From the IMG/VR virus record IMGVR_UViG_3300049846_001081: a stretch of 64,000 nucleotides of DNA, one strand, 5' to 3'. Origin of the DNA: a virus (taxonomy: Duplodnaviria; Caudoviricetes). Below the pieces are notes generated by a model that made no database searches, was not told where the DNA came from, and saw only the letters and a list, made by a program, of their open reading frames with translations. Made by a program: the position numbers and the translations under genes. Each line of letters starts with the position of its first letter. Position 1 is the first letter of the stretch. This document shows positions 1,519 through 44,638 of the stretch, piece by piece.

Positions 1519-1544
1519 ATTGGATAAATACCTAAAAAACGATA

Positions 1545-3716: not shown

Positions 3717-3733
3717 TAAATACCTAAAAAACG

Positions 3734-5452: not shown

Positions 5453-5466
5453 ATATCTAAAAAACC

Positions 5467-7161: not shown

Positions 7162-7178
7162 ATATCTAAAAAACGATA

Positions 7179-17491: not shown

Positions 17492-18523
17492 ATGGGAACG
17501 TTTAGTAAAGTTTTAAAATATAAAAAACCAACTCTTCCCATTGACGAGAAGATAAAGAAACTTGATGTTGAGTTGAAGAAAACTCTTGGTGAGGCTATTA
17601 CAAATAGCACACAAGGACTTTATGTTGTAACTGGATTTGAACCTGGTGATCCTGCAATTCCAGAAGTTCCTGCAGTTCCAGCAGTTCCTCCAACATATGA
17701 AAATGTAACTGGAGGACTTTCTAATACAAATGATTTTGTGTGGGGAGATCAGGGAGATGGAAGTAATCCAAATGCTCCAGTTAATATACCTTCTAACTTA
17801 TATACAACTTATAATGGGGAACAAGTAGCAGCACTGAGAACACCAGAAGTTGATCATGGAGAAGGTGTTACTCCACTTGCATTTATATATCATGGTAGAG
17901 CAATTTCTAGTCAAGTTCTTGGTTTTTTGAGTGATAGTGGATTTACTGGGGTTGTTCAAAGTGGAGTATTTACAACTCCAGGTCCATATACAGATCTTCA
18001 ACAAGCGTATCTAGATGCTTGGAATAATTTTGGGGAAAGTGGAATATATCAATATTATACGACAAAAACAATATATCTTTGGGGATCATTAGATTGTCTT
18101 TTTGGATCTTGTTTTGGTGGTTCAGCGTATTCTCCATCTAATCTAACGAATACTAGCACTCCAAAAGCAGACCGTGCTTTGTATGCTTATACAATGGTAA
18201 TACCAACGGATGCAAATGGTAATCCCTTACCAAACAGAATAATGACAGATCCAGGTTCTCCAGAAATTCCTGCAATTCCTGGTGTTCCTGAAGGTCCTCC
18301 TAAACCTGTTGTTATAAGTAGAAATGCATTAGGTGATCCTAATTATTATCCCGGACCCGTTCAAGTTGCGGGATTGACTCCACTTGAAGCTGCGGCACTT
18401 GTTGATATTGTTAGGAAGTCTCCTCCTGGACCAACTAGAACTAATGCAATAAATCAATTGTATCAGGGTTTGCCTGGCGCTAAAAATCAACAACTTCTCA
18501 ACAATCTTATTCGTGGAATATAA
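17492..18523 (+). CDS. Late-promoter hypothetical protein with Pro-rich linkers (possible virion protein)
   Basis: ATAAATA at 17467; PAIPEVPAVPAVPP and PEIPAIPGVPEGPP segments. Confidence 0.6.
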   Translation: MGTFSKVLKYKKPTLPIDEKIKKLDVELKKTLGEAITNSTQGLYVVTGFEPGDPAIPEVPAVPAVPPTYENVTGGLSNTNDFVWGDQGDGSNPNAPVNIPSNLYTTYNGEQVAALRTPEVDHGEGVTPLAFIYHGRAISSQVLGFLSDSGFTGVVQSGVFTTPGPYTDLQQAYLDAWNNFGESGIYQYYTTKTIYLWGSLDCLFGSCFGGSAYSPSNLTNTSTPKADRALYAYTMVIPTDANGNPLPNRIMTDPGSPEIPAIPGVPEGPPKPVVISRNALGDPNYYPGPVQVAGLTPLEAAALVDIVRKSPPGPTRTNAINQLYQGLPGAKNQQLLNNLIRGI

Positions 18524-30231: not shown

Positions 30232-30648
30232 ATGAATCTTAAAGCAGTTTTAATTGCTAGTCTAATTACATTACCTTTTCCTGCATTTGCTCAACAAACT
30301 AACATCTATTCTGTTTGTACTAATTACCAAGAAAACTATACTCCTGGGTATTATGATCAATATGGTAATTATATTCAAGGAAATGTAAATACACAACGTT
30401 ATAATGTTCAGTGTGGAACTGGTACATACTATCGTCCTAATGGTGGGGCAGTATATCAATCTCCAGTCACTGCACCTGTAGCGCAACCTGGATATGGTAG
30501 AGGTTACTGTTCTCCAGCAAGAACCACTCTTGGTGGTTTGCTTGGTGGAGGGATTGCTGCGTCAGTTTCTAAAAAGAATGCTTGGAGTTGGGCTATTCCT
30601 CTTGGTGCAGTATTGGGAACTGGTGTAGCAAATGCCACATGCTATTAA
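30232..30648 (+). CDS. Exported glycine-zipper protein
   Basis: Likely start ATG 30232 (MNLKAVLIASL, signal-like); C-terminal LGGLLGGGIAA...IPLGAVLG; stop codon lies inside repeat R1. Confidence 0.65.
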   Translation: MNLKAVLIASLITLPFPAFAQQTNIYSVCTNYQENYTPGYYDQYGNYIQGNVNTQRYNVQCGTGTYYRPNGGAVYQSPVTAPVAQPGYGRGYCSPARTTLGGLLGGGIAASVSKKNAWSWAIPLGAVLGTGVANATCY

Positions 30649-30678
30649 AGTTACTCACCTCCAAAGTGTCTTAGTAAT
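30643..30678 (+). repeat. 36-bp element R1
   Basis: TATTAAAGTTACTCACCTCCAAAGTGTCTTAGTAAT, then GTAAG. Confidence 0.95.
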
Positions 30679-30694
30679 GTAAGCACGCAACACA

Positions 30695-31105
30695 ATGGCA
30701 ACTCGCTCACGCATCGGTCTTGAACTTGCTGATGGTTCTATTCTCTCCGCATATGCACACTGGGATGGTTATCCTGAGTGGATGGGTCGTATTCTTCGCA
30801 CTCATTACAATACCAAAGATAAAGTTGCTGAACTGATTGATGGTGGTGATATGAGTTCTCCTTGGACTAATGCTGGTTTCAATAATGAAACTGTTGAACA
30901 AGGTCCACTGTATTATTCTCAACGTGGTGATAATTGCCCTCCTCGCCTTGATGCTGATCTGTGTGAGTATCTTCTGCCCGATAACAGCGAAGAGTTTGCA
31001 TATGTCTTTAGCAGTGGTGAGTGGGTGTGCTATAATATGAATCAGTTTGATGATACCAAACTTCCCGAAGTTGTTGAGATTCCCTCTGGAGCACTTGCTG
31101 TATGA
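30695..31105 (+). CDS. Conserved phage hypothetical protein (TRS...HWDGYP family)
   Basis: MATRSRIG...YAHWDGYPEWMG motif, widespread in phages. Confidence 0.7.
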   Translation: MATRSRIGLELADGSILSAYAHWDGYPEWMGRILRTHYNTKDKVAELIDGGDMSSPWTNAGFNNETVEQGPLYYSQRGDNCPPRLDADLCEYLLPDNSEEFAYVFSSGEWVCYNMNQFDDTKLPEVVEIPSGALAV

Positions 31106-32783
31106 TTAGTAAGAAGTATATTATTACTGGACTAATTGGTTTTGCTGTCATTCTTGGGTGGAATGTATTTCTAATTCAGCGTGATGAGCGACTTTATGAT
31201 GCTTACTATCGTGCTAAAGCGATAGAGAACCTGAAAAGTCCTCCAAGCGATAAGATTCGGTGATTTACTTTCTTATTATTTCAGCAGGATTTGGATGGTG
31301 CTTTTTTGTACTGTTTTCTAAACACTTTGATTACCTAGACGATCGCAAACGCAAATGATTTCAAAACGTATCCGAGAACTGATTATGAAAGCTGAACGTG
31401 AAAAGATTGCCCGCGAATTTTGGGAGGAAATTGAGCGGGAAGCAGCAAAACTTGAAGTAACAGTTGACTATTACCTTGCAGAGTTTTACTGATGACTTTT
31501 ATTCTTGGAGTTGGAGTTGGTATTCTTTTAACTATCGGATACGCAATCTTATCAGTTGCATCTGATGCTGATGATGTGATTGACAATGAATACAAAAAAG
31601 ACTAAACTTAAGAGGTAAATTACACAAACAAATGGCACAAAAGTTTCTTTACATCGTTGATCATTATGTTCCTTTTCCTTCTTCTGAGTATGGTGGACTG
31701 TGGAATGTAATTGCAGAAGATGATGACGAATGTTTTGATTTGATTTCCGCAGAGGATAATGGTAATTTTTACGAAAAGTTTTATAGCAATCTGAGAGAAA
31801 ACATCCTCAATGCAAGAACTTATGCCCTTGCCGAAGATTTTGATTCTGTTGTTGTTGAGTCTTTTACCACTTGATGATTGACACCTCACTAAATCGCCTT
31901 GAGTTTAACCTCAAGGAACAGTATCAAGATCGTATCAACTATCTTCAACAAAAGATTACGGAGCAACAACATGAAATCTTGCGACTCCAAGAACAAATCA
32001 AATACATGTCAAAAGATAGATTTTACGATTGCTGAGTTTCCACACAAACCACCGAAAGATTATAGTTATGAGTTTGAAGAGTTCAAGCGTGGTGTGGTCT
32101 CTATTTGGTTGCGTTGTCATCGCAAGTTTGACTACAATAATGGTGCCACAACTCGCACCATTTGGGGATTCTACAAATCCAAAACTAGAGAATACTTTGC
32201 CCCAGTCAATAGTAAGACCATCGGTGCTTGTGTAAATATCAAAGACACGAGAAACTATACAGCGATGCCATTGAAACTATCACCTCTAGATGCTTTCTTT
32301 GTATGAACTACGAACCTCAAGTCAATGACTATGTTAAATGGACAAAAGGAGTTGAGGGGTGGGTATATTTCAAAGACAAAGAATACATTACCATTGAGTA
32401 TGTTGTTCGTCCTAAAGATGAAGTAAATCTTGAATGTTGTCCCATTCATAAAAACGAAAGATTACTTGTAGTTTGTTATGCCGAACAATGGAAAGAGTTA
32501 GAGTACATCAAGTCACGAAAATCAATCTATGAAGAAGAACAGAACATTTTGGCGATTGCTAGCTAAATCTCTTGGAGAAAAAGCAAGTAAATGTGACAAA
32601 GAGGCGGATAAGGTTGCTCTTATCCGTCTTTTGATGTTTCTATCCATTTTTATCACCAACTGTTTTATTGTTGCTAATGCAATAAGACATTGGAATGATA
32701 AACCAGTCATTCATCTAATTATTGATGGAAGTTATGTACCAAATGAATTGCCAAACCAAATAAATACTCAAAAAGTTCTGTAA
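31102..32783 (+). other. Small hypothetical CDSs (31102-31263, 31632-31874, 31874-32035, ~32030-32306, ~32303-32566, 32529-32783 and others)
   Basis: Tiled + strand ORFs. Confidence 0.6.
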
Positions 32784-32785
32784 AA

Positions 32786-32977
32786 ATGAAAACCTTTCAA
32801 CAGTTTATTGAGCAAACTCCAGCGATGCAATCTAATGAGTATAATAAACAGGTTGCACGTCAATCTGCACGTTGGAAAGGTATGCAAATCCGTCAAGCAC
32901 ATGGAGAAATGGAGCATGAAGCAGGTGCAGAACAATCTGCAAAGAAAGCAAGACTGAAAGCAATCATGTCTCGTTGA
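32786..32977 (+). CDS. Putative internal head protein with capsid-targeting-like N-terminus
   Basis: MKTFQQFIE (T4 CTS is MKTYQEFIAE); ATAAATA at 32760. Confidence 0.6.
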   Translation: MKTFQQFIEQTPAMQSNEYNKQVARQSARWKGMQIRQAHGEMEHEAGAEQSAKKARLKAIMSR

Positions 32978-33012
32978 ATTAAAGTTACTCACCTTCAAAG
33001 TGTTCTAGTAAT
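32977..33012 (+). repeat. 36-bp element R2
   Basis: AATTAAAGTTACTCACCTTCAAAGTGTTCTAGTAAT, then GTAAG. Confidence 0.95.
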
Positions 33013-33030
33013 GTAAGCAACAATCCTATT

Positions 33031-33168
33031 ATGGACTCTTTTGACGACATTCAAATTGAAGATTTCTCCTCTTTTGATTTCGTTGAGGAGATGAATGAAG
33101 GTCTCTTTGATGAGAAAGATGATGACAAATCTTTTCAAGCATTTCTTAACTCTAACTGGGATTTCTGA
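33031..33168 (+). CDS. Small acidic hypothetical protein (45 aa)
   Basis: MDSFDDIQIEDFSSFDFVEEM..., read manually. Confidence 0.6.
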   Translation: MDSFDDIQIEDFSSFDFVEEMNEGLFDEKDDDKSFQAFLNSNWDF

Positions 33169-33222
33169 CAGTTTCTAAACTGTCCACTAAATCACCCACA
33201 CGGTTCTTTTATCCTTTATCAT
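33167..33222 (+). promoter_or_regulatory. Palindromic site plus early promoter (likely leaderless transcript)
   Basis: GACAGTT-TCTA-AACTGTC-CAC; TATCAT at 33217-33222, then 6 nt, then ATG 33229. Confidence 0.65.
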
Positions 33223-33228
33223 ACTCAA

Positions 33229-33429
33229 ATGACTGAACAAATCCCTAACGTGCTTTCTCATATCAACGAACTGAAAGAAGCATGGCGCAAACAAGATTTT
33301 GTATTCACTAAACAACAACAAGAAGAATATGATTTACTTCTTGCCACTCGTCGTGAGCGTGTGAAGCAATTTTATGCTGAAGGACGTGTCTTTAAGGGTT
33401 CCTATAAAGCAAAGGAAGTTGAAATCTAA
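33229..33429 (+). CDS. Hypothetical protein
   Basis: 66-aa ORF directly behind the promoter. Confidence 0.7.
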   Translation: MTEQIPNVLSHINELKEAWRKQDFVFTKQQQEEYDLLLATRRERVKQFYAEGRVFKGSYKAKEVEI

Positions 33430-33455
33430 ATACTAAAAAGAGTGTTTAGATAACA

Positions 33456-34133
33456 ATGCGTACATTTCAGGAGTTTATGTCTCTTTGTGAAGCATCTGAT
33501 GCTGATACTGCCAGTCAACTTGGATGGGGTGGTGGTGCATCTATCACCCGCACAGGTGCTGGCGGTAGAATAGGGAAAGAACGCAAAAAGACTGCTCCTG
33601 AAGTTAGAAGAACCAAAGCAGTTGGTGGTGGTAAAACAGAACCTGTAGGACCATATAAAACACGCAAAGATGTTGGGCAACCACGTGGTTCTTCTGCACC
33701 AGCACCAGGAAGAGGTAAAGGTGCAACTGAACTAAAACCTGGCACTGCTGGAACTCAAGGTAGTGCCGCAATGTCTGCAAAAGAAAGACAACGTAAAGCA
33801 TACCTTGAGCGTAAAGCAAGAGAAGGTGGTAAAGCACAACCAAAAACTGCATCTCAAGCAATCTCTCAAGCAAAACCAACAGCAGAAAAACCAGCATCAA
33901 AACCACGCAGAAAGTGGGAACATGAAGGTGGTGGTGGTATGACCCGACAAGAAAGAGATAAAGCAAGGAATAAAGAGAAAACTGCAACAGCACAAAAGAC
34001 AAAGAAGTCTGCCACTGAGATTCTTGCACAAATGCGTAGAGAATACGAAGCAAATGGTGGAAAGTGGAGCAATGCTGTTGCTGTTCGTATGAGAGCAAAA
34101 GCAAAAGCGGTAGCACAAGCATCAGGAAGTTGA
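33456..34133 (+). CDS. Highly basic putative internal head protein with capsid-targeting-like N-terminus
   Basis: MRTFQEFMSLCEA start; K/R/G/A-rich; CTAAATA at 33427. Confidence 0.6.
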   Translation: MRTFQEFMSLCEASDADTASQLGWGGGASITRTGAGGRIGKERKKTAPEVRRTKAVGGGKTEPVGPYKTRKDVGQPRGSSAPAPGRGKGATELKPGTAGTQGSAAMSAKERQRKAYLERKAREGGKAQPKTASQAISQAKPTAEKPASKPRRKWEHEGGGGMTRQERDKARNKEKTATAQKTKKSATEILAQMRREYEANGGKWSNAVAVRMRAKAKAVAQASGS

Positions 34134-34137
34134 GATC

Positions 34138-34173
34138 AATTAAAGTTACTCACCTCCAAAGTGTCCTAGTAGT
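34138..34173 (+). repeat. 36-bp element R3
   Basis: Consensus copy immediately followed by ATG 34174. Confidence 0.95.
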
Positions 34174-34395
34174 ATGACTGATGCCTTCGCTATGGACCGA
34201 ATTGAAATCCAACGCAAACTCTATGATGCTCGCAATGAGTATCTAAAGGCAAAGAAGTCTATGGAGTTTTGGAAACGCGAAATCTCTTTCCTGAAAGAGT
34301 GTGAAGACAACCTCAAGAAAGGTCGCACTGGAGATTGGTTGTTCCGTGAAATGTTTGGCGATACTCCTATTGCTGAAGAAGTTTATGGTGGTTGA
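34174..34395 (+). CDS. Hypothetical protein
   Basis: Starts at the end of R3. Confidence 0.65.
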   Translation: MTDAFAMDRIEIQRKLYDARNEYLKAKKSMEFWKREISFLKECEDNLKKGRTGDWLFREMFGDTPIAEEVYGG

Positions 34396-34485
34396 TTAAC
34401 TGCCACCAGCACCCCTCCACAATCGCCAGGAAGGGTGCTATAATAGTCTTTAGATACCAAACCACCCGAAACTCTGTAATTCGTA

Positions 34486-35727
34486 ATGTTCTCTGATCTG
34501 ATTAAACTTCGCCCACATCAAGAACGCGGTGTTGTTGCTATGCAACAGCATGATAAAGGTCAGGTGATTGTTCCCACTGGTGGTGGCAAGACTCTCAAGA
34601 TGATCTACGATGCTCTGCGCGAGTTACAGTCTGAAACTCCTCAGACCATTGTTGTTGTTGCTCCTCGCATCTTGCTTGCTGAGCAACTCTCTAGCGAGTT
34701 CCTTGAGTTCATCACTAACGCTAAAGTTTTCCACGTTCACAGTGGCGAAACTCATCACGAATCTTCTACTCGCCCTCGTGAAATCCGTAACTGGGTTGAT
34801 GCCAACGCTGACAATCATAAACTGATTGTAACCACCTACAACTCTCTGTCGCGTCTTCAAGTGGCAGAGATTGATGTGGATACGATCTACTTTGATGAGG
34901 CACATAACTCTGTTCAGCGTCACTTTTTCCCTGCAACTGAGTATTTCTCTGCTAACGCACGACGTTCGTATTTTTTCACGGCAACCCCGAAACATTCCCT
35001 CGCTGTTGGCAAACCTGGGATGAATGATACTGCGGTTTATGGTCAGGTAATCTGCAAAGTTCCTGCTCCTGAACTTGTTGAAGGCGGATATATTGTGCCT
35101 CCTAAAGTTATCGTCAAGCAACTGCAGATGGTGCAGGGCAAGCAAACCAACTTTGACCGAGACTCTGAGAATCTGCTAGAAACCATTGATGACAACAAGG
35201 TTGGCAAGATTTTGGTTTGTGCTAAGGCAACGAAGCAGATTGTGTCTTTGGTGACTGAAACTGATTTCTGTTTCCAGTTGGAGTGCCGTGGTTACTCTTG
35301 GATGTATATCACTGCTAAGACTGGTGCTGTCATTGATGGCAAGAAAGTGAACCGAGAAGTATTCTTTGACACGCTATCTGCCTGGGGTAAGGATAACGAT
35401 AAGAAGTTCGTAGTTCTTCACCACTCCATCCTTGCTGAAGGTATCAACGTGTCTGGTCTGGAAGCAGTGCTGTTTCTTCGCAATATGGACTTCATTGGTA
35501 TCAGTCAGACGATTGGACGTTGCATCCGTCTGCATCACGATGATGCTAAAGGTTTGCGTGATGGGCGTATCCAACCTGGCAACCTGGAGCAGTATAGCAA
35601 ATCGTTCGGTCTTGTGTGTATCCCAGTGTACTCCAAGGTTGGTATTGCTACCGCTCGCAGTGTGCAGTCGGTTGTTGATACGATCTTTGAGAAGGGAGAA
35701 CCTGCCATCTCGGTGGTGAGGCGCTGA
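34486..35727 (+). CDS. Superfamily 2 DEAH helicase (ResIII-like)
   Basis: PTGGGKT (Walker A), FDEAH, FTATP, ILAEGINV, QTIGRCIR motifs; TATAAT at 34439. Confidence 0.9.
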   Translation: MFSDLIKLRPHQERGVVAMQQHDKGQVIVPTGGGKTLKMIYDALRELQSETPQTIVVVAPRILLAEQLSSEFLEFITNAKVFHVHSGETHHESSTRPREIRNWVDANADNHKLIVTTYNSLSRLQVAEIDVDTIYFDEAHNSVQRHFFPATEYFSANARRSYFFTATPKHSLAVGKPGMNDTAVYGQVICKVPAPELVEGGYIVPPKVIVKQLQMVQGKQTNFDRDSENLLETIDDNKVGKILVCAKATKQIVSLVTETDFCFQLECRGYSWMYITAKTGAVIDGKKVNREVFFDTLSAWGKDNDKKFVVLHHSILAEGINVSGLEAVLFLRNMDFIGISQTIGRCIRLHHDDAKGLRDGRIQPGNLEQYSKSFGLVCIPVYSKVGIATARSVQSVVDTIFEKGEPAISVVRR

Positions 35728-35751
35728 GTCTCATAGTAGACTCAAGTATTC

Positions 35752-35777
35752 ATCAGGGGTGAAACCCTGATTTTTTT
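35752..35777 (+). terminator. Rho-independent terminator
   Basis: ATCAGGG-GTGAAA-CCCTGAT plus a T run; preceded by the hairpin TGAGTCT-N6-AGACTCA (35725-35744). Confidence 0.75.
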
Positions 35778-35845
35778 GTAATTCTACCTGGAGGGTGTCA
35801 TAGGTCATCCACCGCAACAAAATTAACGATTTATTGGAAAGTGTA

Positions 35846-36022
35846 ATGAAAGAAGGATTTATTGTTGGCAAAGGTAATTACTCTGCGATTCCTTATGGTA
35901 ATCAACTGATGGTAATTCACAACGGTCAGCAACTCAAAGTGTGTAGGACTGAAGCATCTGCTAGGAAGTTCATTGATGACCATAAAAAGGGTAAACCATT
36001 GGGCAAACTTCCATTGAATTAA
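35846..36022 (+). CDS. Hypothetical protein
   Basis: ATG 35846; stop codon inside R4. Confidence 0.6.
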   Translation: MKEGFIVGKGNYSAIPYGNQLMVIHNGQQLKVCRTEASARKFIDDHKKGKPLGKLPLN

Positions 36023-36052
36023 AGTTACTCACCTCCAAAGTGTCCTAGTAGT
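36017..36052 (+). repeat. 36-bp element R4
   Basis: Consensus copy, then GTAAG. Confidence 0.95.
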
Positions 36053-36070
36053 GTAAGACGCATCTAATCT

Positions 36071-36316
36071 ATGCCTCGCACTCGCAAGCAAACCGCTAAT
36101 GTTGTTGCTGAAGTGAAAGTTCCTGAGGTTCTCATCACTCGCCAGCAATATATTCAAGACATTAAGGTTCGTTGGCAAATCCATCAATACGAAGTGAACA
36201 AACTTCGTGAAGATGTGAGCAAAGTTACTCAAACTGTTGCTCCCTATGTGAAAAACGCACTCGATTATGTTGTTACTCAGTTTCAACAAGTCCGTGCTAA
36301 GTATGCCACTAATTGA
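36071..36316 (+). CDS. Hypothetical protein
   Basis: 81 aa after R4. Confidence 0.7.
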   Translation: MPRTRKQTANVVAEVKVPEVLITRQQYIQDIKVRWQIHQYEVNKLREDVSKVTQTVAPYVKNALDYVVTQFQQVRAKYATN

Positions 36317-36327
36317 AGTGGAACTCT

Positions 36328-36349
36328 GGACTCTCTGAGTCCTTTTTTT
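36328..36349 (+). terminator. Rho-independent terminator
   Basis: GGACTC-TCT-GAGTCC plus T7. Confidence 0.65.
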
Positions 36350-36794
36350 ATTTGTATGAGTATCCTTCTTTTATGAACTGTTCTCTATAGTAATCTGCTA
36401 TTTTCTTAAACGATGATAAATCTGTTGATGCTCTAACATTATTAACACATTTTAGACACCAACAAAGATTATCTGGATGGTTTGCTTCATCAATCGTCAT
36501 TCCCATTATGAAACAAACTGCGAGTGGTATTTTGTGGTCTAATGATCTTTTTCTTGGGTCATTTGGATTGGGAAACTCTACTTCAGTATCCACAAATCTA
36601 ATCCCAGTATGATAGCAATAATCGTATTCTTTCAGAACTGGTTTAGCATCTTTTCTTAAATGTTTTACTTTTCCTATTCTTGTTCTGCTGTGTCTTTTTC
36701 TCACTTGATCTCCAGCAACTCTGATGTATTCTGTTAGTTCTATTTGAAACTTTGGTTGTTTGTATTCTATGCTGTTTCTTTCTATTAAGTTCAT
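36348..36794 (-). mobile_element. HNH endonuclease (probable homing endonuclease), antisense insertion
   Basis: SLDHKIP...NL.W.L..VN HNH pattern; exact TATAAATA late promoter on the minus strand at 36819-36826. Confidence 0.75.
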
Positions 36795-36830
36795 AAGATA
36801 GATGGTTTCCGTCTACTTTATTTATAAGAG

Positions 36831-36886
36831 GACAGTTGTAAAAGTGTCCACTATCTCTTGACTTTTGCCCCTTGGAATCCTATTAT
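36831..36886 (+). promoter_or_regulatory. Palindromic site plus sigma70 promoter (likely leaderless transcript)
   Basis: GACAGTT-GTAA-AAGTGTC-CAC; TTGACT(36858)-N17-TATTAT(36881), then 6 nt, then ATG 36893. Confidence 0.75.
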
Positions 36887-36892
36887 TTGATT

Positions 36893-37816
36893 ATGAACAA
36901 AACAACCACTAAAAACCTACACCTTGAGCACCCTGAAGATATGGTGCTGACTGGAAATCTTGAGGTTCTTGATTGGTTCTCTGAACCTGATAGTTTTATC
37001 TCTACAAAACTTGATGGAAGTCCTGCTATTGTTTGGGGCACAAATCCTCAGAATGGCAAGTTTTTTGTCTGCACCAAAGCAGCATTTAACAAGAAAAAGA
37101 TTCGTCTTTGCTATAACGAAGATGACATTTTCACTCATTTTGGTGGGCAACCGCGTGTAACGCAGATTCTCATTTTCTGCCTGGATTTCCTGCCTCGCAC
37201 TCAACAAGTGTTGCAAGGTGATTGGATTGGTTTCGGTGGTGGGTTGGATACATTTACTCCCAACACAATTACCTACAAGTTTCCTGCACCAGTTCGTCAG
37301 GATATTATCATCGCTCCGCACACAATCTACAGCGGTTCGGATGACATTCGTGAGATGACTGCTTCCCCTCTGAATAGCAAACTCATCAGCACTAAACATT
37401 GTCTTTTCGTGCAACCTGAAGTGGAACTGAATCCTTATCGCGAAGATTTGGAGGATGTGTGTAAGTTTGCCAAGCAAATGTCAACTCTGTGTGAGTTTGT
37501 GAGTGATCGTAAAGCATCACAAATCAAAAAAGAGATTAACGCTTGCATCCGTGAGCAAAAGGTCATTGATGAGGATGAAATTGCAGAAAAATGTGATTGT
37601 GACAAGAACCTGATCCGTTTGTGGAAGTTGGTAGCATCTATCAAGGATGATTTGTTCTTGTTCATTCACGAAAAGGATGATATTGATTGCTACATCAATG
37701 GCGAACAATCTTTCCACGAAGGTTATTGCATTTCTAACAAATACGGCATTTACAAAGTTGTTGATAGGGAAACTTTCTCACACGCTAACTTCACAATCGC
37801 TAAGAATTGGGGTTAA
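36893..37816 (+). CDS. Conserved phage protein (DUF6267-like) with ligase/nucleotidyltransferase-like KxDG motif
   Basis: NLHLEHPED N-terminal motif; STKLDGSPAIVWG; likely start at ATG 36893. Confidence 0.6.
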   Translation: MNKTTTKNLHLEHPEDMVLTGNLEVLDWFSEPDSFISTKLDGSPAIVWGTNPQNGKFFVCTKAAFNKKKIRLCYNEDDIFTHFGGQPRVTQILIFCLDFLPRTQQVLQGDWIGFGGGLDTFTPNTITYKFPAPVRQDIIIAPHTIYSGSDDIREMTASPLNSKLISTKHCLFVQPEVELNPYREDLEDVCKFAKQMSTLCEFVSDRKASQIKKEINACIREQKVIDEDEIAEKCDCDKNLIRLWKLVASIKDDLFLFIHEKDDIDCYINGEQSFHEGYCISNKYGIYKVVDRETFSHANFTIAKNWG

Positions 37817-37850
37817 TTGAAGTTACTCACCTTCAAAGTGTTCTAGTAGT
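37815..37850 (+). repeat. 36-bp element R5
   Basis: AATTGAAGTTACTCACCTTCAAAGTGTTCTAGTAGT, then ATG 37851. Confidence 0.95.
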
Positions 37851-38285
37851 ATGACAACCACAACTTTCGCTGAATACGCTTCCCAGCAAGAGGCACGTCA
37901 GAACATCGCTAACGCTGTTCTAGCACATACTTACGCATTGTGTGAAGCATTGCGTCAGAATTACATTGATTATAGTATCAAATCTCATCAACTTCGCACG
38001 TCTGATGTAGAGTATCATGATGCCTGTATTGCTAAACTCAAGCAAGGCATTTGTGATTATGATTTCTATCCTGAGACTGGTAGAAAGTATCACAAAATTA
38101 TTATGAACGCTGCAGGATCTCGCTCTGTCCATGCTTTTGTGGATAAAAAGACTGGTGAAGTGTATAAGTCTGCCAGTTGGAAGTCTCCTGCCAAAGGTGT
38201 TCGTTATGACCTGCGATTGATTGAGCAACGTGAATGGTTGTTGCAACATGCTGACTGGGCAGGTGGTTATTTGTACGCAAGGTGA
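37851..38285 (+). CDS. Conserved phage hypothetical protein
   Basis: KYHKI...SVHAFVDKKTGEVYKSASWKSPAKGVRY motif. Confidence 0.7.
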   Translation: MTTTTFAEYASQQEARQNIANAVLAHTYALCEALRQNYIDYSIKSHQLRTSDVEYHDACIAKLKQGICDYDFYPETGRKYHKIIMNAAGSRSVHAFVDKKTGEVYKSASWKSPAKGVRYDLRLIEQREWLLQHADWAGGYLYAR

Positions 38286-38736
38286 TGATTATGAATCAAG
38301 AGCAACTTATCCGTTCAATCAGTCAACAACTTGAAAATCTAATGTCCTTAGATGAAGAGTTGTCTGAAAAGTATGATGCGTATTGTTTCTACCCTGACAC
38401 TGATTATGAACCGATTGTAGAACGATTCACTCCCGAACTTCTCAAAGAACTTGAGAAACTTGTTTATCAACTTGAGACCGAATGACTTACTCTAACCTCT
38501 CAAAGATCCGTCCTAAACTTCGTACAACTGGGCGTGTGTCTGGTAACTTCGGACGCAACAAAGTATCAGCAGGATCATCACTCAATGACATTGGTGGTGA
38601 TGGTAACATAGGGGCAACACAAGATGAATACCTGAACCGATTGTATTATGCTTTTGATAACACTACCGAACCTAAACTTCGCCAGTTCATTTATTCGGAA
38701 ATCCGCAAAATCCACATTCAAAGAGGAACGTGGTAA
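38282..38736 (+). other. Hypothetical CDSs 38282-38485 and 38482-38736
   Basis: Tiled ORFs. Confidence 0.65.
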
Positions 38737-38741
38737 CAAAC

Positions 38742-38777
38742 AATTAAAGTTACTCACCTCCAAAGTGTTCTAGTGGT
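38742..38777 (+). repeat. 36-bp element R6
   Basis: AATTAAAGTTACTCACCTCCAAAGTGTTCTAGTGGT, then ATAAC. Confidence 0.95.
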
Positions 38778-38798
38778 ATAACCACTGAAATCCACCAA

Positions 38799-39338
38799 AT
38801 GTTTAATTCTATTTTTGAAGATGGATCTCTCCAAGATTACATCAATCAAAATGCACAAGATCCTTGGATTGGTACACCTTTCCAAGGTTATGTGTTTATG
38901 TCTCCCAAGCAAAAAGGTGAGTTTGGTGAGCGTTTCGTATCAAAGTTCTTTGAGAGTGTGTTGCTTTGTGATGTAAAACGTGCAAAAACTTCTACTGCTG
39001 GGCACGATCGTGTCATTGATGGTATTCTAACTGAAATTAAGTTTTCTCTTGCTACCCGTGACAAAAAGGGTGGCACAAAGAAAGATCAATTCATCATCAA
39101 TCATGTCTCAAAGGATAAGGATTGGGAGCGTCTTGTGTTCTTTGGTATCAATCAAGATGAGAAAGATTGTCGTTTGTTTTGGTTTAGCAAAGAGGATTTT
39201 CTGAGTCATCTTGAGTCTGATGATTGTCTGTTCGCATCACAGCAAGGTGGCAAATCTATCGGCAATGATGATTACATTTGCACAAAAGTTGATCGTCTGG
39301 TAGAATGTTCGTTTGTGAAGAGCATAACCGAATGGTGA
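38799..39338 (+). CDS. Putative PD-(D/E)xK restriction endonuclease
   Basis: KQKGEFGE...HDRVIDGILTEIKFS catalytic-like pattern; overlaps the methyltransferase start. Confidence 0.6.
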   Translation: MFNSIFEDGSLQDYINQNAQDPWIGTPFQGYVFMSPKQKGEFGERFVSKFFESVLLCDVKRAKTSTAGHDRVIDGILTEIKFSLATRDKKGGTKKDQFIINHVSKDKDWERLVFFGINQDEKDCRLFWFSKEDFLSHLESDDCLFASQQGGKSIGNDDYICTKVDRLVECSFVKSITEW

Positions 39339-40060
39339 ATCTATTTCACGGTGATTGTTTAGACATTCTACCAACACTTGCAGATAATTCTGTTGATCTG
39401 GTGTTAGTAGATCTGCCATACGGAACAACAGCATGTAAATGGGATTCTATCATTCCTCTAGACAAATTGTGGGAGCAGTATAACAGAATCTGCAAGGAAG
39501 ATGGTGCGATGGTATTCACCGCAGCACAACCATTCACAACTATACTTGCATCATCAAATCTTGAGAACTTTCGTTATGAGTGGATTTGGGAAAAACCACA
39601 GGGAACTAATCCTATGAACGCGAAAGTGATGCCTCTCAAGTCACACGAAAACATTCTGGTTTTTTATCGCAAGAAACCCACATATAATCCTCAAATGTGG
39701 TATTCAACTCCTTACAGTGGTTTCTCATCAGATACCAGCAAGATTGGGGAGGTTTATGGTAAAGCACAATCAAAGCATCGCGATAATCCTGATGGATCAA
39801 GATATCCAAAGACAGTGTTACGATTCAAGCAAGAAAAGGGATTGCATCCTACACAGAAACCTGTAGATTTAATGGAGTATTTGATCAGAACATATAGCAA
39901 TGAAGGTGATACTGTTCTTGATAATACCATGGGATCAGGTACAACTGGTGTTGCATGTGTGAACACTAATAGAAACTTTGTTGGTATTGAAAGTGATGAT
40001 CAATACTACAAGATTGCCAGTGATCGTATCAACAATCCTCTGCTATCTGCTCTGAATTAA
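39332..40060 (+). CDS. Beta-class N6-A/N4-C DNA methyltransferase
   Basis: GDCL...DLPY (motif IV) near the N-terminus; HPTQKP...VLDNTMGSGTTG (motif I) at the C-terminus; likely start ATG 39332; stop inside R7. Confidence 0.9.
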   Translation: MVNLFHGDCLDILPTLADNSVDLVLVDLPYGTTACKWDSIIPLDKLWEQYNRICKEDGAMVFTAAQPFTTILASSNLENFRYEWIWEKPQGTNPMNAKVMPLKSHENILVFYRKKPTYNPQMWYSTPYSGFSSDTSKIGEVYGKAQSKHRDNPDGSRYPKTVLRFKQEKGLHPTQKPVDLMEYLIRTYSNEGDTVLDNTMGSGTTGVACVNTNRNFVGIESDDQYYKIASDRINNPLLSALN

Positions 40061-40090
40061 AGTTACTCACCTCCAAAGTGTCCTAGTAGT
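40055..40090 (+). repeat. 36-bp element R7
   Basis: Consensus copy, then ATG 40091. Confidence 0.95.
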
Positions 40091-40755
40091 ATGAACGACA
40101 CTATCATGGATCAAGTCTACCACTATCACACCAACTGGAAAGAAGGTAAAGTGAATCAAATGTGGATTCAGCAAGTAGAAGACAAGTTCATTGCTATTGC
40201 ATACAATCCCGAAAAGAATGTGTCAATGCCAATGTCCAAACCCCGCACTTCCTACGATGAAACTCTACAATGGGTTCGCAAGTGGTGTGGAACTTTCTGT
40301 CCTCTTTACTGATTGATTGATGATGAAAAACTACAAAATTACGGTTGAAACATTTGATGGATTGCGTACTATTTGGTATGAAAAATCCAAAGCAAAAAAA
40401 GCAACCGATATTATCTGCAATCGTGTTTATCAACAACTTTGTGGATTGAATGTGAAGCGAATCTCTGTTGATCTTTCCGTATGATTACACTTGCTGTTGG
40501 TGGAGTTATTCTCACCATATTCTGCACCATGTTTTATCTTGAGGACCGCGATGGTGGTGGTCTTTATGATCCCGATCCGTCTGCATCTTACCGTCACAAA
40601 CAATCAAAAAACAAATGAAATACGAAGTCAAACTGTACGTTGGTGGCAAAGTCTTCACTGAAGAAGTATATGCTAACGATCAAAAATCTGCAAGAGAAAC
40701 AGCAGAAGCACGAAATCCTACCGCAAAAGTTATTGGTGTCAATGCAAAGTTCTAG
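40091..40755 (+). other. Small hypothetical CDSs 40091-40312, 40615-40755 and two short ORFs between them
   Basis: 40615-40755 = MKYEVKLYVGGKVFTEEVYAND...ARNPTAKVIGVNAKF, read manually. Confidence 0.6.
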
Positions 40756-40756
40756 G

Positions 40757-40792
40757 AATTAAAATTACTCACCTTGAAAGTGTTCTAGTAGT
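40757..40792 (+). repeat. 36-bp element R8
   Basis: AATTAAAATTACTCACCTTGAAAGTGTTCTAGTAGT, then ATG 40793. Confidence 0.95.
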
Positions 40793-41572
40793 ATGAGCAA
40801 GACTTTCACCGTTCGCTTCACCTCTGAAGCACTCAATTCTCCCGAATACATTGGACCTTTTTACTCTGAAGATGATGCCAATGATTATGCTGATGATCGC
40901 AACAGTTCTTTAGCATTATCTGGTATTCCTTCCTCTGTTGCTTGTTATTCTGTTGTTGACTGATTATGATACAAACTACTCTCACTTTTGAGGAGATTGA
41001 TGCACTTCTCAAGTTCATCGAGTTTCACACTGATTCATTTGTTGACGAAGAATCTGTAGAAGAATTGAATGGAATTGTGGGGTGTGATGTTGATGCACTC
41101 TACACCAAACTTTCTGAAATGCAGGATGAAGTCTGATGCAATTCCAAGTTACTGAAATTGAGTTTGATTTCACTGATGATCTTGATGATGAAGCACTAGA
41201 TGTTGAAACTCAAGATGAGATTTATGATGAGGTTCTAGGTACAATCTGGGAAGCAGATGATGAAGATGATCTCATTGAAGAAATCACATGTGCAACAGGT
41301 TGGTGCATCAAATCCATTGATTATCGTCACATTCTTAACACTTTCTGAAACGAACTAAAATGACACTTACTTCTGACCAACTTCGCAAACTGATTCAACT
41401 TTATGCTGAGCGAGTTGTTGATAGTATGGATGTGCGCGATTTGTGTGCATTTGCCATTGACACAATTTGTGATAACATGACGGACTATAATGAGTCTGAA
41501 TTGATGGAAGAATTGTCGCACTATTATGAGGACGACGAACTCAACGAATTGGTTGAATCTGTCAAGAATTAA
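40793..41572 (+). other. Small acidic hypothetical CDSs 40793-40963, ~40967-41136, 41136-41348, 41360-41572
   Basis: Tiled ORFs; the last stop lies inside R9. Confidence 0.6.
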
Positions 41573-41602
41573 AGTTACTCACCTCCAAAGTGTCCTAGTA
41601 GT
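41567..41602 (+). repeat. 36-bp element R9
   Basis: Consensus copy, then ATG 41603. Confidence 0.95.
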
Positions 41603-41956
41603 ATGAGCATCACACTTGACCTTGAAATGGCATCTGAACTGATCGGATTTATGAATGACTTTCCTGTCGCAGATTTGAATGATTGTGTAGACTTCATCTG
41701 TGACAAGTTTGATGTATCTGCAACCGATGAGTTGATTGATGCTGTTGCTGACTTTTTCTTTGCTAACTGATAACAAATGACACACTACAATCCTTATGTT
41801 CAAAACCTGATTGAGATGGGTTATGATGAGAAAGACTGCCAAACTGTAGCAGTTGCTGGTATGAAAAAGCAATTTCCACTTAACATTCACGGTCGCATCT
41901 TTGAGACTGAAAGTGAATACAAGGAAGCACTTGCTGACTTTATCAATGGTCTGTAG
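41603..41956 (+). other. Hypothetical CDSs 41603-41770 and 41777-41956 (not in ORF track)
   Basis: Read manually; TAG at 41954-41956 abuts R10. Confidence 0.65.
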
Positions 41957-41992
41957 AATTAAAGTTACTCACCTTGAAAGTGTTCTAGTAGT
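41957..41992 (+). repeat. 36-bp element R10
   Basis: AATTAAAGTTACTCACCTTGAAAGTGTTCTAGTAGT, then ATG 41993. Confidence 0.95.
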
Positions 41993-42613
41993 ATGAATCA
42001 AACCACTTACACCTCTCCTGATACAAACAAGACTTATACGGTTATTGAATCACAATCTGAGCGTGGTGCATGGGATAAGGATGGAAACTATGCACCAGTT
42101 GTTGTGACTCAGTACAGCATTTATGATGATAACAAGATGGTGCAATTTGCTTTTGATGTAGAAGGAATTGCACGTTCTGTAAAGCATTATGAATTGCCTG
42201 GTCCTGATTTAGGTTCACGCTTTGACTAAAAGTTTAACATTCAAGAGTCCAAGTAAAGTGAAAACCATCGCATTGATTTTTATTGTTGCGATGATATTCT
42301 CACCACAAGTGAGATACACAACCGCACAAACATTACACACCGTTGCTGATCTAATTTCCCCACAATGAGAAGCGTAAAAGTTCATTCAAGCAAGAGTGTT
42401 AATTTCACATCAAAGGCATCATTTTGGTGTGAGATGATTAATCTTTATAGGCGAATCTATCCGTCACATTCTTTTGCTCAAATCGCAAAACATTTCAATC
42501 TGTCAGAGACAAATACTCGTCGGTATTATTACGGGATTCATCACTACAACTCTTTTCCCGTTTATTATACACAGATGAGGCAGGGTGCATGTGTCTCAAT
42601 TCCACACAATTAA
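41993..42613 (+). other. Hypothetical CDSs 41993-42229, a short hydrophobic ORF, and 42365-42613
   Basis: The last stop lies inside R11. Confidence 0.6.
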
Positions 42614-42643
42614 AGTTACTCACCTCCAAAGTGTTCTAGTAGT
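42608..42643 (+). repeat. 36-bp element R11
   Basis: AATTAAAGTTACTCACCTCCAAAGTGTTCTAGTAGT, then ATAAG. Confidence 0.95.
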
Positions 42644-42667
42644 ATAAGACCTCTGAAATCTCCAACC

Positions 42668-42979
42668 ATGCGAGTCATTGAAAAGCAAATGAATCAAGCA
42701 ATCAGCACTGAAACTGATTGGAAGAAAGATAATACTCAAGTTATCAACATTGAAGGTGTAAGTTTCGTCTATCTGTATAACAATCTGATTGCAATGGTAG
42801 GTGACACTTGGTTAGAATTGTTTGATGGTGGATGGAAGACTAATACCACCAAGTCTCGCCTCAATGCTATTCTCCAAGAGCATGGAAATGGAGAGTACAT
42901 TTTCCAGAAAAACTTCAACTGGTTTGTATCAACAATCAACGGTGATGTTCCTTTCAACAATGGCATCAAACTCGACTGA
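42668..42979 (+). CDS. Conserved phage hypothetical protein
   Basis: MRVIEKQM...DGGWKTNTTKSRLNAIL motif. Confidence 0.7.
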   Translation: MRVIEKQMNQAISTETDWKKDNTQVINIEGVSFVYLYNNLIAMVGDTWLELFDGGWKTNTTKSRLNAILQEHGNGEYIFQKNFNWFVSTINGDVPFNNGIKLD

Positions 42980-42983
42980 CTGA

Positions 42984-43951
42984 TTGAATAAAATGACTGA
43001 ACTTGAACTTCAATGTGTCCATCTTGCCTATCAACTTGCAGAGGAAATCAATGGTGATGTGAGTTGCGTACCTGATGAAGATATGGAGGTTATTCTTAAC
43101 AAACTGAATCGTAATAACGTTCAAGAAGTTGCACAAGAAATCGCTGATCTTGCACACTGGTTTAACTAATGACTGATACCGACAAAGTATTTGCTCTAAC
43201 TGAACTTCTGGGTGATGTAATTCACACTCTTGAAATGAAACAGTATGACATTGAAGATGCTACTCTGTCTTATGAATGTGTGACTGATGCTGATAAGTTT
43301 CGCCAAAAGATGATCGACATTCTTTATCCAAACAAATGACAAAATCAATCAATCAAGAACTCAAAACCCAAGCAGTTGTAGAAGCACTAGAGTTCTACAT
43401 TCAGAATCTCAAAGACACCAACTGTACGCAATCTTCAATCGACTTTTATACTCAAGTATTGAAAGAAGTTGATTCTGAACTCCAACATTCTGTACTCTAA
43501 ACTAATGCAAAAGACATTCAAAAAGTTCATCTGGAAAGACTCAAGATCCAATCAAGTTAAAGTCATTCTAGCAAGGTCAGAATACCAAGCAAGGAAACAA
43601 AACTTTGGTAATCTTGCTGGTTATCTTTACTCTCACTCTGTTGCGCTTGCGCTTAACCCTTCGGGCACTCTAAACTGATGTTTCTCATTCGTTATTTCAC
43701 TCCTTATCAACAACAATGGAGGACACAATCATTCTCTACACTTGATGAGGCACAACGCATGATTGAGTTCTATCGTTCTTGTGGAAGTCCTGCTGAACTT
43801 ATCAACAACTGAAACTCTCATGATTGAAACACTGATCGCATCAATTATCGTAGGACAAGTTATCTCTGGTCCAAACACTTTACAGACTGAATACCTAACT
43901 GAAAGGGATGAAGTTATCACTATAGTGGAGACGATTCAAGAGGTTCCGTAA
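42984..43951 (+). other. Run of very small hypothetical CDSs
   Basis: Tiled short + strand ORFs ending before the terminator at 43960. Confidence 0.5.
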
Positions 43952-43959
43952 TAACATAG

Positions 43960-43984
43960 AGGCACCACATCAGGTGCCTTTTTT
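43960..43984 (+). terminator. Rho-independent terminator ending the early array transcript
   Basis: AGGCACC-ACATCA-GGTGCCT plus a T run. Confidence 0.75.
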
Positions 43985-44213
43985 AATGCCTATTTGTACG
44001 ATTTATGCTAAAAAAACAATAAAAAACGATTAAAAATGTATTAAAAAATATATGTATGTTGTTTTAATCGTCTGATCATTATTGTTATCAATGTGTGATA
44101 ATGATATGAATTCGTATCATTTATGTGCTTGTAATCTCTCTGTGTGCCTATAAACCTCTCCAGATATGTGTGCTGATACCTTATAAATGTGCTGAGGTCT
44201 TGTGATCTAAGCG

Positions 44214-44242
44214 AGCATAACATAACGACCGCACTTTGTCAA
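44214..44242 (-). promoter_or_regulatory. Leftward sigma70 promoter with no downstream ORF
   Basis: Minus strand TTGACA-AAGTGCGGTCGTTATGT(17)-TATGCT, with extended -10 TG. Confidence 0.7.
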
Positions 44243-44314
44243 CTTCCAGGGTCACAAAATCCCCACAATCCCCCCATCAAAATCCACACCCCGCTCATAA
44301 ATACGCCCAGGGAC

Positions 44315-44343
44315 TTGACACTTATTCCCAGGCATCTTACAAT
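44315..44343 (+). promoter_or_regulatory. sigma70 promoter
   Basis: TTGACA-N17-TACAAT; ATAAATA at 44297; AAGGAG RBS before ATG 44372. Confidence 0.75.
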
Positions 44344-44371
44344 ACTCTCATAACACCAAAGGAGCGTACTT

Positions 44372-44545
44372 ATGTCAGTTGCTTATAGTCAAGCGCAGAA
44401 GCAGCGTTATAGGATCACTCTGGATCTATCAGTGTTCGGTGACTTTGACCCACATCAGATTGATTGGGAGAAGTTATTCAAGTTGGAACCTGCAGAAAAG
44501 TGTGATGCTTACGTTGAGGATCTAAGTACACCTGACCGTTGGTGA
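44372..44545 (+). CDS. Hypothetical protein (57 aa)
   Basis: MSVAYSQAQKQRYRITLDL..., read manually; good RBS. Confidence 0.7.
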   Translation: MSVAYSQAQKQRYRITLDLSVFGDFDPHQIDWEKLFKLEPAEKCDAYVEDLSTPDRW

Positions 44546-44554
44546 TTTAGCAGT

Positions 44555-44590
44555 CATTAAAGTTGCTCACCTTTAAAGTGTCCTAGTAGT
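44555..44590 (+). repeat. 36-bp element R12
   Basis: CATTAAAGTTGCTCACCTTTAAAGTGTCCTAGTAGT, then ATG. Confidence 0.9.
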
Positions 44591-44638
44591 ATGAGGGGCA
44601 GACAAACGACCCCCCACACAGACACTAACTCTTCACAA

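Follow-up and report, generated by a model that had tools for sequence, protein, structure and literature searches.

Promoter-early stem-loops (PeSLs), described in the T4-type myoviruses RB49/phi1, PST/T4 and nt-1/KVP40, combine a strong sigma-70-like promoter with a terminator stem-loop (Arbiol et al. 2010, PMC2839356; Comeau et al. 2014, PMC4122927). The element family reported here, from a freshwater T4-like cyanomyovirus, most likely represents an unusual form of a feature that T4-type phages are already known to carry. Like PeSLs, it is made up of short regulatory cassettes, numerous, nearly identical and all in one orientation, which cluster in the hyperplastic early region (here 12 copies within 14 kb). 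Each cassette precedes small non-essential genes. Gains, losses and rearrangements of genes among relatives end at PeSLs, and several clear cases of this kind, described below, are seen for the element. Neither system involves a site-specific recombinase, and homologous recombination of the phage is the presumed engine. Unlike PeSLs, the element contains neither a sigma-70 consensus nor a stem-loop, and a hairpin with a T-run lies within 60 nt upstream in only 26 of 514 copies. It is also shorter, is joined directly to the stop and start codons on either side, and is conserved across far more divergent phages.

The early elements of marine cyanophages offer a second comparison. T4-like cyanophages are not known to encode MotA or AsiA, nor to express early genes from ordinary host-type promoters. 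Doron et al. 2016 reportedly found early genes under the control of a novel element in Syn9 and P-TIM40, and middle genes under host-like promoters; the motif of this early element is not given in papers citing Doron et al. 2016. The marine elements resemble ours in being repeated, conserved and located directly upstream of early genes. They also share its genomic niche, the block of small ORFs between the tail-fibre and baseplate genes, which in P-HM2 is the early cluster, and canonical TTGACA-N17-TAnnnT promoters coexist with the elements in neighbouring blocks. The sequences differ, however. In P-HM2, P-SSM2 and ACG-2014f, GTGGCACA is followed after about 28 nt by TATAAT and a leader of roughly 20-30 nt, and a GTGGCACA box ~28 nt upstream of a TATAAT-like -10 is absent from our element. 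Syn9 carries its own motif in the corresponding region, in only 4-5 copies and with no match to the element, of which Syn9 has no copy within 3 mismatches. Our element, in contrast, lacks a clear -10 at a usable distance, and half of its copies end in a start codon.

With integrons, the locus shares a one-orientation array of short repeats between unrelated, individually dispensable genes. It differs in that the element has no hairpin-forming imperfect inverted repeats, and that there is neither an integrase nor a single upstream promoter with an attI site. Instead, the element lies 5' of its gene and is apparently itself the expression signal.

Twelve copies between stop and start codons

The window, by which we mean the whole 64-kb stretch of DNA that was analysed, contains twelve near-identical copies of a 36-40-base element, all on the plus strand (repeat family D7). 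The array occupies the block between the tail-fibre genes and the baseplate genes (gp25/6/7/8). The copies and the genes discussed below are as follows.

30643-30682, plus strand: element copy 1; positions 4-6 are the TAA stop of the upstream gene
30695-31105, plus strand: T4-GC66 family gene (phrog_1987); starts at position 53 of element copy 1
32977-33016, plus strand: element copy 2; leader present, next ATG at 33031
34138-34177, plus strand: element copy 3; ATG at element position 37 opens ORF 34174-34395
36017-36056, plus strand: element copy 4; leader present, next ATG at 36071
37815-37854, plus strand: element copy 5; ATG at position 37 is the start of the DUF7717 gene
37851-38285, plus strand: DUF7717 gene; Pfam profile aligns from residue 6
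38742-38781, plus strand: element copy 6; left border of the mobile methylase cassette
38799-40060, plus strand: two-gene methylase cassette; 179-aa protein (phrog_6927) and N6/N4 DNA methyltransferase
40055-40094, plus strand: element copy 7; right-hand border of this cassette, ATG at position 37
40757-40796, plus strand: element copy 8; ATG at position 37
41567-41606, plus strand: element copy 9; ATG at position 37
41957-41996, plus strand: element copy 10; ATG at position 37
42608-42647, plus strand: element copy 11; leader present, Kyano_Gp96 gene starts at 42668
44555-44594, plus strand: element copy 12; most divergent copy, ATG at position 37

An earlier note on this DNA had listed twelve direct copies and no others in the window. 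The repeat search and a search with a 22-nt core bear out every coordinate: at up to 3 mismatches the core gave 12 matches, all on the plus strand and none elsewhere in the 64 kb, versus 0 in a shuffled-sequence control. Aligning the twelve copies yields 28 invariant columns and five nearly invariant ones, all within ~40 nt, and the flanks are unrelated.

The element is compact (~36 bp) and unstructured, has stop codons in all three frames, and is placed exactly between the stop of the upstream gene and the start of the next. Judged by the ORF ends, the upstream stop overlaps or lies inside the left end in seven copies (30643, 32977, 36017, 37815, 40055, 41567, 42608) and ends 0-9 nt before the element in the remaining five, as had been noted. 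An ATG directly after base 36 is likewise confirmed in seven copies (34138, 37815, 40055, 40757, 41567, 41957, 44555), where it opens the next ORF each time. The description of the element as standing in place of the intergenic region is supported.

By synteny and orthology with P-HM2 only, the element lies upstream of early-cluster genes. The first gene it leads, the T4-GC66 family gene, has the P-HM2 ortholog PHM2_061, a member of the early cluster, and in P-HM2 RNA-seq the corresponding block is the only early-expressed cluster (PHM2_056-074).

Conservation among phages

The database search that had been proposed recovered about 500 copies in 117 public viral contigs. All are intergenic and on the gene strand, and none of the 117 loci has copies on both strands. 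The marine Synechococcus phage SynMITS9220M01 carries 12 copies. The 15 copies of one complete genome and the 12 of another are each confined to a single ~15-kb region and to one strand. The sister families E2 and E3 have only the right ~20 bp in common with the element and coexist in one genome. A text search of the literature with the core sequence returned nothing relevant.

Between phages the element is 95-100% identical, compared with 70-87% for the genes there. Its core is identical in a marine and a freshwater phage whose DUF6267 orthologs are 57% identical, which argues for a sequence-specific expression signal as its primary function and for shuffling as a by-product of homologous recombination. 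Most copies occupy conserved slots before conserved genes. For a given gene family, the element is present upstream in almost all cases (81-100%) or in almost none (0-5%), and among relatives the element keeps company with its downstream gene. The earlier suggestion that the element serves expression of the next gene is supported.

A candidate early promoter

We think it probable that the element is an early promoter with adjoining 5' control sequence, used in one T4-like cyanomyovirus lineage, whose copies are also recombination substrates. The purine at position 37 would be the most likely transcription start. Genes with their ATG there, about half of those led by the element, would then be leaderless, and the remaining ones would carry an A/C-rich leader of 15-21 nt that lacks a Shine-Dalgarno sequence. 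Position 37 is a purine in every copy and is preceded by T in 494 of 509. Gene starts are bimodal, with 235 at position 37 and the remainder mostly at 51-58. Where the ATG is at 37, it opens a long ORF in 94% of copies, and downstream out-of-frame ATGs are nearly absent. In 11 copies, a terminator hairpin with T-run lies ~10 nt upstream of the element, and in these no second in-frame ATG follows within ten codons after the ATG at 37. Most of the 11 lead DUF6267, for which the ATG at 37 is the only possible start of a conserved protein.

Some observations count against a start at this position. It would put TGTCCT at the -10 position, where the essential A at -11 is missing, whereas early promoters in P-HM2, P-SSM2 and ACG-2014f show a regular TATAAT box with ~20-30-nt leaders. 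Among the other genes of the window, leaderless geometry is not enriched (7/113 versus a background of 7.7%).

A sigma-70 consensus scan called 0 of the 12 copies and called canonical promoters elsewhere in the region; the best hexamers in the element are TTACTC (2/6) and TAGTAT (4/6), 18 nt apart. Speaking for the promoter reading and against an RNA structure, the element contains no inverted repeat or hairpin, its RNA fold is no better than that of shuffles on either strand (z +0.7 to +1.3), and it shows no long-range covariation. Hexamers tried by hand, namely TAAAGT (4-9), CAAAGT (20-25) and a T4-late-like TAAATA in some marine copies, do not fit all copies. In the assembled contigs of one metatranscriptome, where DNA carry-over is possible, contigs end at the element, since the repeat exceeds the word size of the assembler.

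The element departs from the sigma-70 consensus, and only its right half recurs in the sister families. Its recognition therefore probably requires a putative specificity factor beyond the plain housekeeping holoenzyme. A more elaborate combination, which we hold to be rather doubtful when all its parts are taken together, would make this a phage factor, possibly delivered with the virion, with transcription starting at the A of the ATG and half of the early mRNAs leaderless. Interchangeable left boxes (element, E2, E3) would define sub-regulons, and the signals would double as a scaffold on which co-infecting cyanophages exchange anti-defence and defence modules.

Other promoters in place of the element

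Upstream of the DUF6267 gene (ATG at 36893), which is element-preceded in 81% of relatives, the window has a sigma-70-type promoter instead. The stretch 36017-36893 contains, downstream of element copy 4, the following features.

36328-36342, plus strand: intrinsic-terminator-like hairpin with T-run, 3' of gene 36071-36316
36348-36794, minus strand: endonuclease VII-like ORF (phrog_1035), on the opposite strand
36858-36886, plus strand: canonical sigma-70-type promoter (TTGACT, 17 nt, TATTAT)

In the relatives L024 and L066, a matching gene end and a matching terminator are directly followed by the full element and the DUF6267 gene. The endonuclease VII-like ORF, which looks like a homing-endonuclease-type insertion, occupies the site of the relatives' element. 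The same comparison overturns the earlier identification of a 9-bp element remnant at 36311: these bases belong to the gene upstream, whose 3' end is conserved. A second candidate, AAAGTGTCC, ~50 nt upstream of the ATG at 36893, was rejected as a remnant of the right half. It overlaps GTCCACTATC, which also heads a Syn9 repeat, and therefore more probably belongs to another type of promoter, similar to that of Syn9.

The promoter at 36858-36886 ends 6 nt before the DUF6267 ATG, which is a leaderless geometry. At five loci, the element before DUF6267 is replaced by three or four different promoters, of sigma-70 or extended -10 type, in which 6 nt separate the -10 box from the start codon. This interchangeability speaks for the promoter reading.

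Host promoter or RNA signal

Could the element be an ordinary promoter of the host RNA polymerase? The sole good TAnnnT, TAGTAT at 33-38 (TATAGT at 31-36 in a variant), would be its -10 box, TTACTC a weak -35-like box, and transcription would start at about A43-A46. Conservation at these positions is high (T33 in 504, A34 in 460 and T38 in 488 of 509 copies) and extends to copies that have no ATG there. C42-A43 resembles a start dinucleotide, TAGTAT is the -10 box of the P-HM2 ortholog of the first led gene, and other cyanomyovirus early elements have clear -10 boxes. Yet the predicted start lies downstream of the ATG at 37, so that genes starting there would be translated only from read-through of upstream promoters. 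For conserved genes the transcript would thus begin past the sole available start codon, even where a terminator stands directly before the element, and the other copies would be left with leaders of just 6-15 nt. The -35 match of 2/6, the sigma-70 scan without a call in the twelve copies and an invariant "spacer" that goes unexplained add to the difficulty, and we regard this explanation as unlikely.

We give still less credence to an RNA-only intercistronic signal in polycistronic early transcripts, such as a translational-repressor site (RegA), a processing site or an enhancer of Shine-Dalgarno-free translation. The exact packing of stop, element and start, the stops in three frames, the A/C-rich, G-poor stretch downstream and the absence of a sigma-70 consensus would suit such a signal, and RegA is encoded by cyanomyoviruses (Syn9 annotation). 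However, the element is found directly after intrinsic terminators, and bona fide promoter sequences take its position in relatives. Structure and covariation were not detected, and the element is limited to the early block rather than spread across all operons.

Movement of element-led modules

The preferred reading, a promoter whose copies also recombine, agrees with the movement of modules among relatives. The earlier note had proposed gain, loss and reordering of element-bounded modules, and the methylase, helicase and module-order cases support this. The methylase cassette occupies at least 5 different array slots in relatives, mostly flanked by elements, and the limits of its block coincide exactly with the outer edges of an element on either side. 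The helicase module is relocated in L004, L020, L087 and L096, and in L085 the order of two conserved modules is inverted. Nevertheless, the element does not emerge as the main driver of plasticity: neighbours change at 81% of junctions with an element versus 68% of those without, a modest excess in counts that are not phylogenetically independent and that come from relatives 70-87% identical, not from near-identical pairs. Joints in metagenome contigs have sides of mostly 20-40 nt, which is the element itself, and are thus no proof of rearrangement.

Copies are more similar within one locus (88.9%) than in the same slot of other loci (85.0%), which could reflect gene conversion or else co-evolution with a genome-specific factor. 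Given their near-identity, their single orientation and the presence of a RecA/UvsX homolog, the 12-15 copies per genome would also serve as substrates for homologous recombination. Recombination between them may homogenise the copies and move, delete or exchange element-led modules, much as in PeSLs.

A dedicated recombination site of the integron attC type, at which an enzyme would capture and excise cassettes site-specifically, is highly improbable, despite the array-like layout, the mutually unrelated cargo genes and the different slots of the methylase cassette. The observation that the window encodes no integrase extends to whole genomes: searches with positive controls found neither PF00589 (tyrosine recombinases) nor PF00239 (serine recombinases) in two complete genomes that carry the element. 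The resemblance is therefore to T4 PeSL recombination and not to an integron. The element has no inverted repeats and forms no foldable single strand, at conserved slots it remains linked to the gene it precedes, and many indels end away from elements. An integron-like acquisition system is not supported. A promoter for a phage single-subunit RNA polymerase (T7/SP6-type) is similarly improbable, although the right half of the variant form resembles the SP6 promoter by eye (about 11/17 positions, including CTATAG) and the sister families keep a conserved right half of ~20 bp, since T4-like cyanophages use the host polymerase and PF00940 had no match in the two complete element-bearing genomes, a weak result because that search had no positive control.

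Implications

The element provides a sharp handle on how T4-like cyanophages start early transcription. It is ~36 bp long, almost invariant from marine to freshwater phages and outside the sigma-70 consensus, it has a base-exact position relative to stop and start codons, and it comes with natural sister families in which the left half is swapped. Through it, one can test directly where transcription starts, whether a phage factor is needed and whether picocyanobacteria translate leaderless messages. The array also extends PeSL-type modular shuffling to cyanophages, and bears on the exchange of small early genes among these phages. Methylases, likely nucleases and internal proteins are examples of such genes, with probable roles in defence and counter-defence.

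A repeated element between the genes of one block

The window derives from a T4-like cyanomyovirus of freshwater metagenomes, and its gene order is that of Synechococcus phage SynMITS9220M01, gene for gene.

Organisation of the window
1–15 kb: tail-fibre-like repeat proteins
15–30.6 kb: small ORFs without the element
30.6–44.6 kb: element array; adjoining genes all on the + strand
31971–32306: DUF7717 (T4-GC68) paralog, within a module
37851–38285: second DUF7717 (T4-GC68) paralog, directly element-led
44.9–47.6 kb: further small ORFs
47.6 kb onward: the baseplate genes, one of them (4008 aa) gp7-like
49981–62007: this 4008-aa reading frame; SynMITS9220M01 and P-HM2 have their gp7-like 'baseplate wedge initiator' at the syntenic position

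Several large ORFs at 1–9323 consist of dozens of 147–150-nt (49–50-aa) repeats with the motif SSPxQIPGTQW and are probably tail-fibre or propeller-repeat proteins. Periodic repeats of 9 nt occur at 17641–17697 and 18250–18306, within an ORF at 17492–18523.

A repeat finder run on the 64 kb returned one direct-repeat family of 12 copies, starting at 30643, 32977, 34138, 36017, 37815, 38742, 40055, 40757, 41567, 41957, 42608 and 44555. A search with the 22-nt core (≤3 mismatches) recovered the same 12, all on the + strand, with no match elsewhere in the 64 kb and none in shuffled sequence. When the copies are aligned with their flanks, the conserved block extends from about position 2 to 40, with 28 columns invariant and a further 5 nearly so; outside it the sequences are unrelated to one another. 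The array described in the earlier note is thus real, and its counts were correct: the upstream stop codon lies within or overlaps the left end of the element in 7 copies and 0–9 nt before it in the other 5, and in 7 copies base 36 is immediately followed by an ATG, which each time opens the next ORF.

Recognisable cargo families are a DEAD/ResIII helicase, DUF6267, the two DUF7717 paralogs, an N6/N4 methyltransferase with a small partner, and a Kyano_Gp96 protein. The DUF6267 protein (36893–37816) and its relatives share a conserved HPED...KxDG N-terminal region resembling motif I of nucleotidyl-transferases (ligases); because of the KxDG motif, its earlier label as 'ligase-like' is a fair one.

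Conservation and anatomy of the element

The exact 22-mer is present in 117 stretches of IMG/VR contigs. Allowing ≤4 mismatches yields 627 copies, of which about 510 are unique, and at every locus the copies share one strand. In SynMITS9220M01 a variant form is present 12 times; S-SM2, S-B05, S-B43 and two further isolates have a few copies each. Two complete genomes, of 222 kb and 190 kb, contain 15 and 12 copies, respectively, in each case confined to a single block of ~15 kb on one strand. Between the window and its relatives, element copies are 95–100% identical and genes 70–87%; a 19-nt core is unchanged even in the marine phage, where the DUF6267 ortholog has only 57% protein identity. 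Since the element is kept while the genes and the DUF6267 protein diverge, its sequence must be under strong constraint, whereas a mere recombination substrate could drift from lineage to lineage.

In 149 of these copies the upstream ORF terminates with the TAA at element position 4; in others it terminates between positions -1 and 3 or a few nucleotides further upstream. Every reading frame is closed within the element, by stops at positions 4–6, 30–35 and 38–40. Downstream gene starts are bimodal, with an ATG at position 37 in 235 copies and most others at positions 51–58. Where an ATG stands at 37, it is the start of an ORF ≥35 codons long in 235 of 249 copies (94%). In a slightly larger set of 514 unique copies, a second in-frame ATG follows at 49–61 in 146 of the 266 copies with ATG at 37, and out-of-frame ATGs are nearly absent. 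The 15 nt past position 37 are A/C-rich and G-poor in coding and leader copies alike. No structure of the RNA or DNA strand was found in the copies (z-scores +0.7 to +1.3); mutual information is confined to adjacent bases and separates two alternative forms, TAGTAGT and CTATAGT.

Two sister families, E2 (loci L079, L017 and L003) and E3 (L042 and L100), share contigs with the main family. They keep the right half, GAAAGTG..CCTATAGTATGA (~20 bp), and differ in the GC-rich left and central boxes, the central one being CTGGGGCC or CTGGGCCCC. This pattern suggests a shared core with a variable recognition box.

The element as probable expression signal of the downstream gene

ORFs from all loci were grouped into families, and each family was scored for a preceding element. 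Some are almost always element-preceded (helicase 95%, DUF6267 81%, T4-GC66 88%, Kyano_Gp96 93%, others 90–100%), the remaining ones almost never (0–5%); the element therefore moves together with the gene that opens a module.

In five loci, including the window, DUF6267 is preceded by ordinary promoters instead of the element. These comprise three or four different sequences (TTGACT-17-TATTAT, TTGATT-17-TATTGT, or extended -10 types), and in each the -10 box ends 6 nt before the DUF6267 start codon; in locus L109 a GTG takes this place, and the called ATG lies 15 nt further downstream. This spacing suggests leaderless mRNAs in several relatives. In the window the replacement is accompanied by the only sizeable opposite-strand ORF of the array (36348–36794, - strand), which is AT-rich and endonuclease VII-like (phrog_1035, E 2e-6). 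Inserted after the upstream terminator and ahead of the DUF6267 gene, this ORF resembles a free-standing gene of the homing-endonuclease type. Locus L070 has a similar insertion beside an intact element.

The position of the array also fits early expression. In P-HM2, the transcriptome table places the early cluster in one contiguous block, PHM2_056–074, which includes the T4-GC66 gene PHM2_061. The block is bordered on one side by small genes of the middle class that follow the tail fibres, and on the other by the genes that precede g25/6/7/8 (PMC5082946, S2 Table). The first element-led gene of the window (30695–31105) is an ortholog of this T4-GC66 family, and the element, being restricted to one block, matches the early genes in one block of P-HM2. 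A different repeated element, GTGGCACA followed after ~28 nt by TATAAT, is found at the early genes of P-HM2 and at their counterparts in P-SSM2 and ACG-2014f; Syn9 has yet another motif in 4–5 copies. At the compared loci of ACG-2014f (L124), P-SSM2 (L122) and P-HM2 (L125), GTGGCACA is often followed by a perfect GC-rich inverted repeat and then TATAAT or TATACT. The leader of this type is roughly 20–30 nt, and the P-HM2 genes behind the element are assigned to the early class by RNA-seq. Canonical promoters are present in the blocks flanking the array in the window. The work of Doron et al. in 2016 is said to place early genes of such phages under a novel element and middle genes under host-like promoters.

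Where transcription would start

An intrinsic-terminator-like hairpin with a T-run ends ~10 nt before the element in 26 copies. In 11 of these, most of them preceding DUF6267, the ATG at 37 is followed by no second in-frame ATG within ten codons. The DUF6267 protein begins there with MKNTH, which directly abuts the conserved HLEHPED, so this ATG is its only possible start. With a terminator upstream and the sole start codon at 37, the transcript must begin at or before that position, and conservation begins only ~35 bp upstream of it. We infer a start at position 37, in which case the element would span about -35 to -1. This start is favoured by the purine at 37 in every copy and the T at 36 in 494 of 509, by gene starts lying 0 or 15–21 nt downstream, and by the substitute promoters, whose geometry is leaderless. 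Its main difficulty is that no TAnnnT box occupies the -10 position. The main alternative takes the only good TAnnnT hexamer of the element, at positions 33–38, as the -10 box and predicts a start near 43–46, but a sigma-70 scan called none of the 12 copies in the window.

Movement of modules

Among the loci the modules largely keep one backbone order, with clear exceptions. The helicase module has moved to the front of the array in L004, L020, L087 and L096, the DUF6267 and DUF7717 modules are inverted in order in L085, and individual small genes change module between loci. The comparison of relatives proposed in the earlier note also found the methylase cassette in five contexts with different neighbour pairs; between the window and L070, where the flanks differ, the aligned segment begins exactly with one element and ends exactly with the following one. 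Neighbours differ across element junctions in 81% of comparisons, against 68% without the element, although the comparisons are interdependent. Plasticity is found throughout the region, and the element contributes only a modest excess. Copies of the same locus are more alike (88.9%) than copies in the same slot of other loci (85.0%) or unrelated pairs (83.3%), which fits gene conversion between copies.

Both complete element-bearing genomes encode a RecA/UvsX homolog, and tyrosine and serine recombinases are absent from both. This matches the model for T4 promoter-early stem-loops (PeSLs; PMC2839356, PMC4122927) and does not match an integron. Of the repeat-mediated cassette system envisaged earlier, the movement and reordering of modules stands. 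The element is not a new class of mobile-cassette system.

The element belongs with the known cyanophage early elements and the T4 PeSLs, and differs as a variant of both. Most likely, it is primarily a lineage-specific, non-canonical early promoter family and secondarily provides homologous-recombination break points for gene modules. Its recognition mechanism and exact start site are worth testing.
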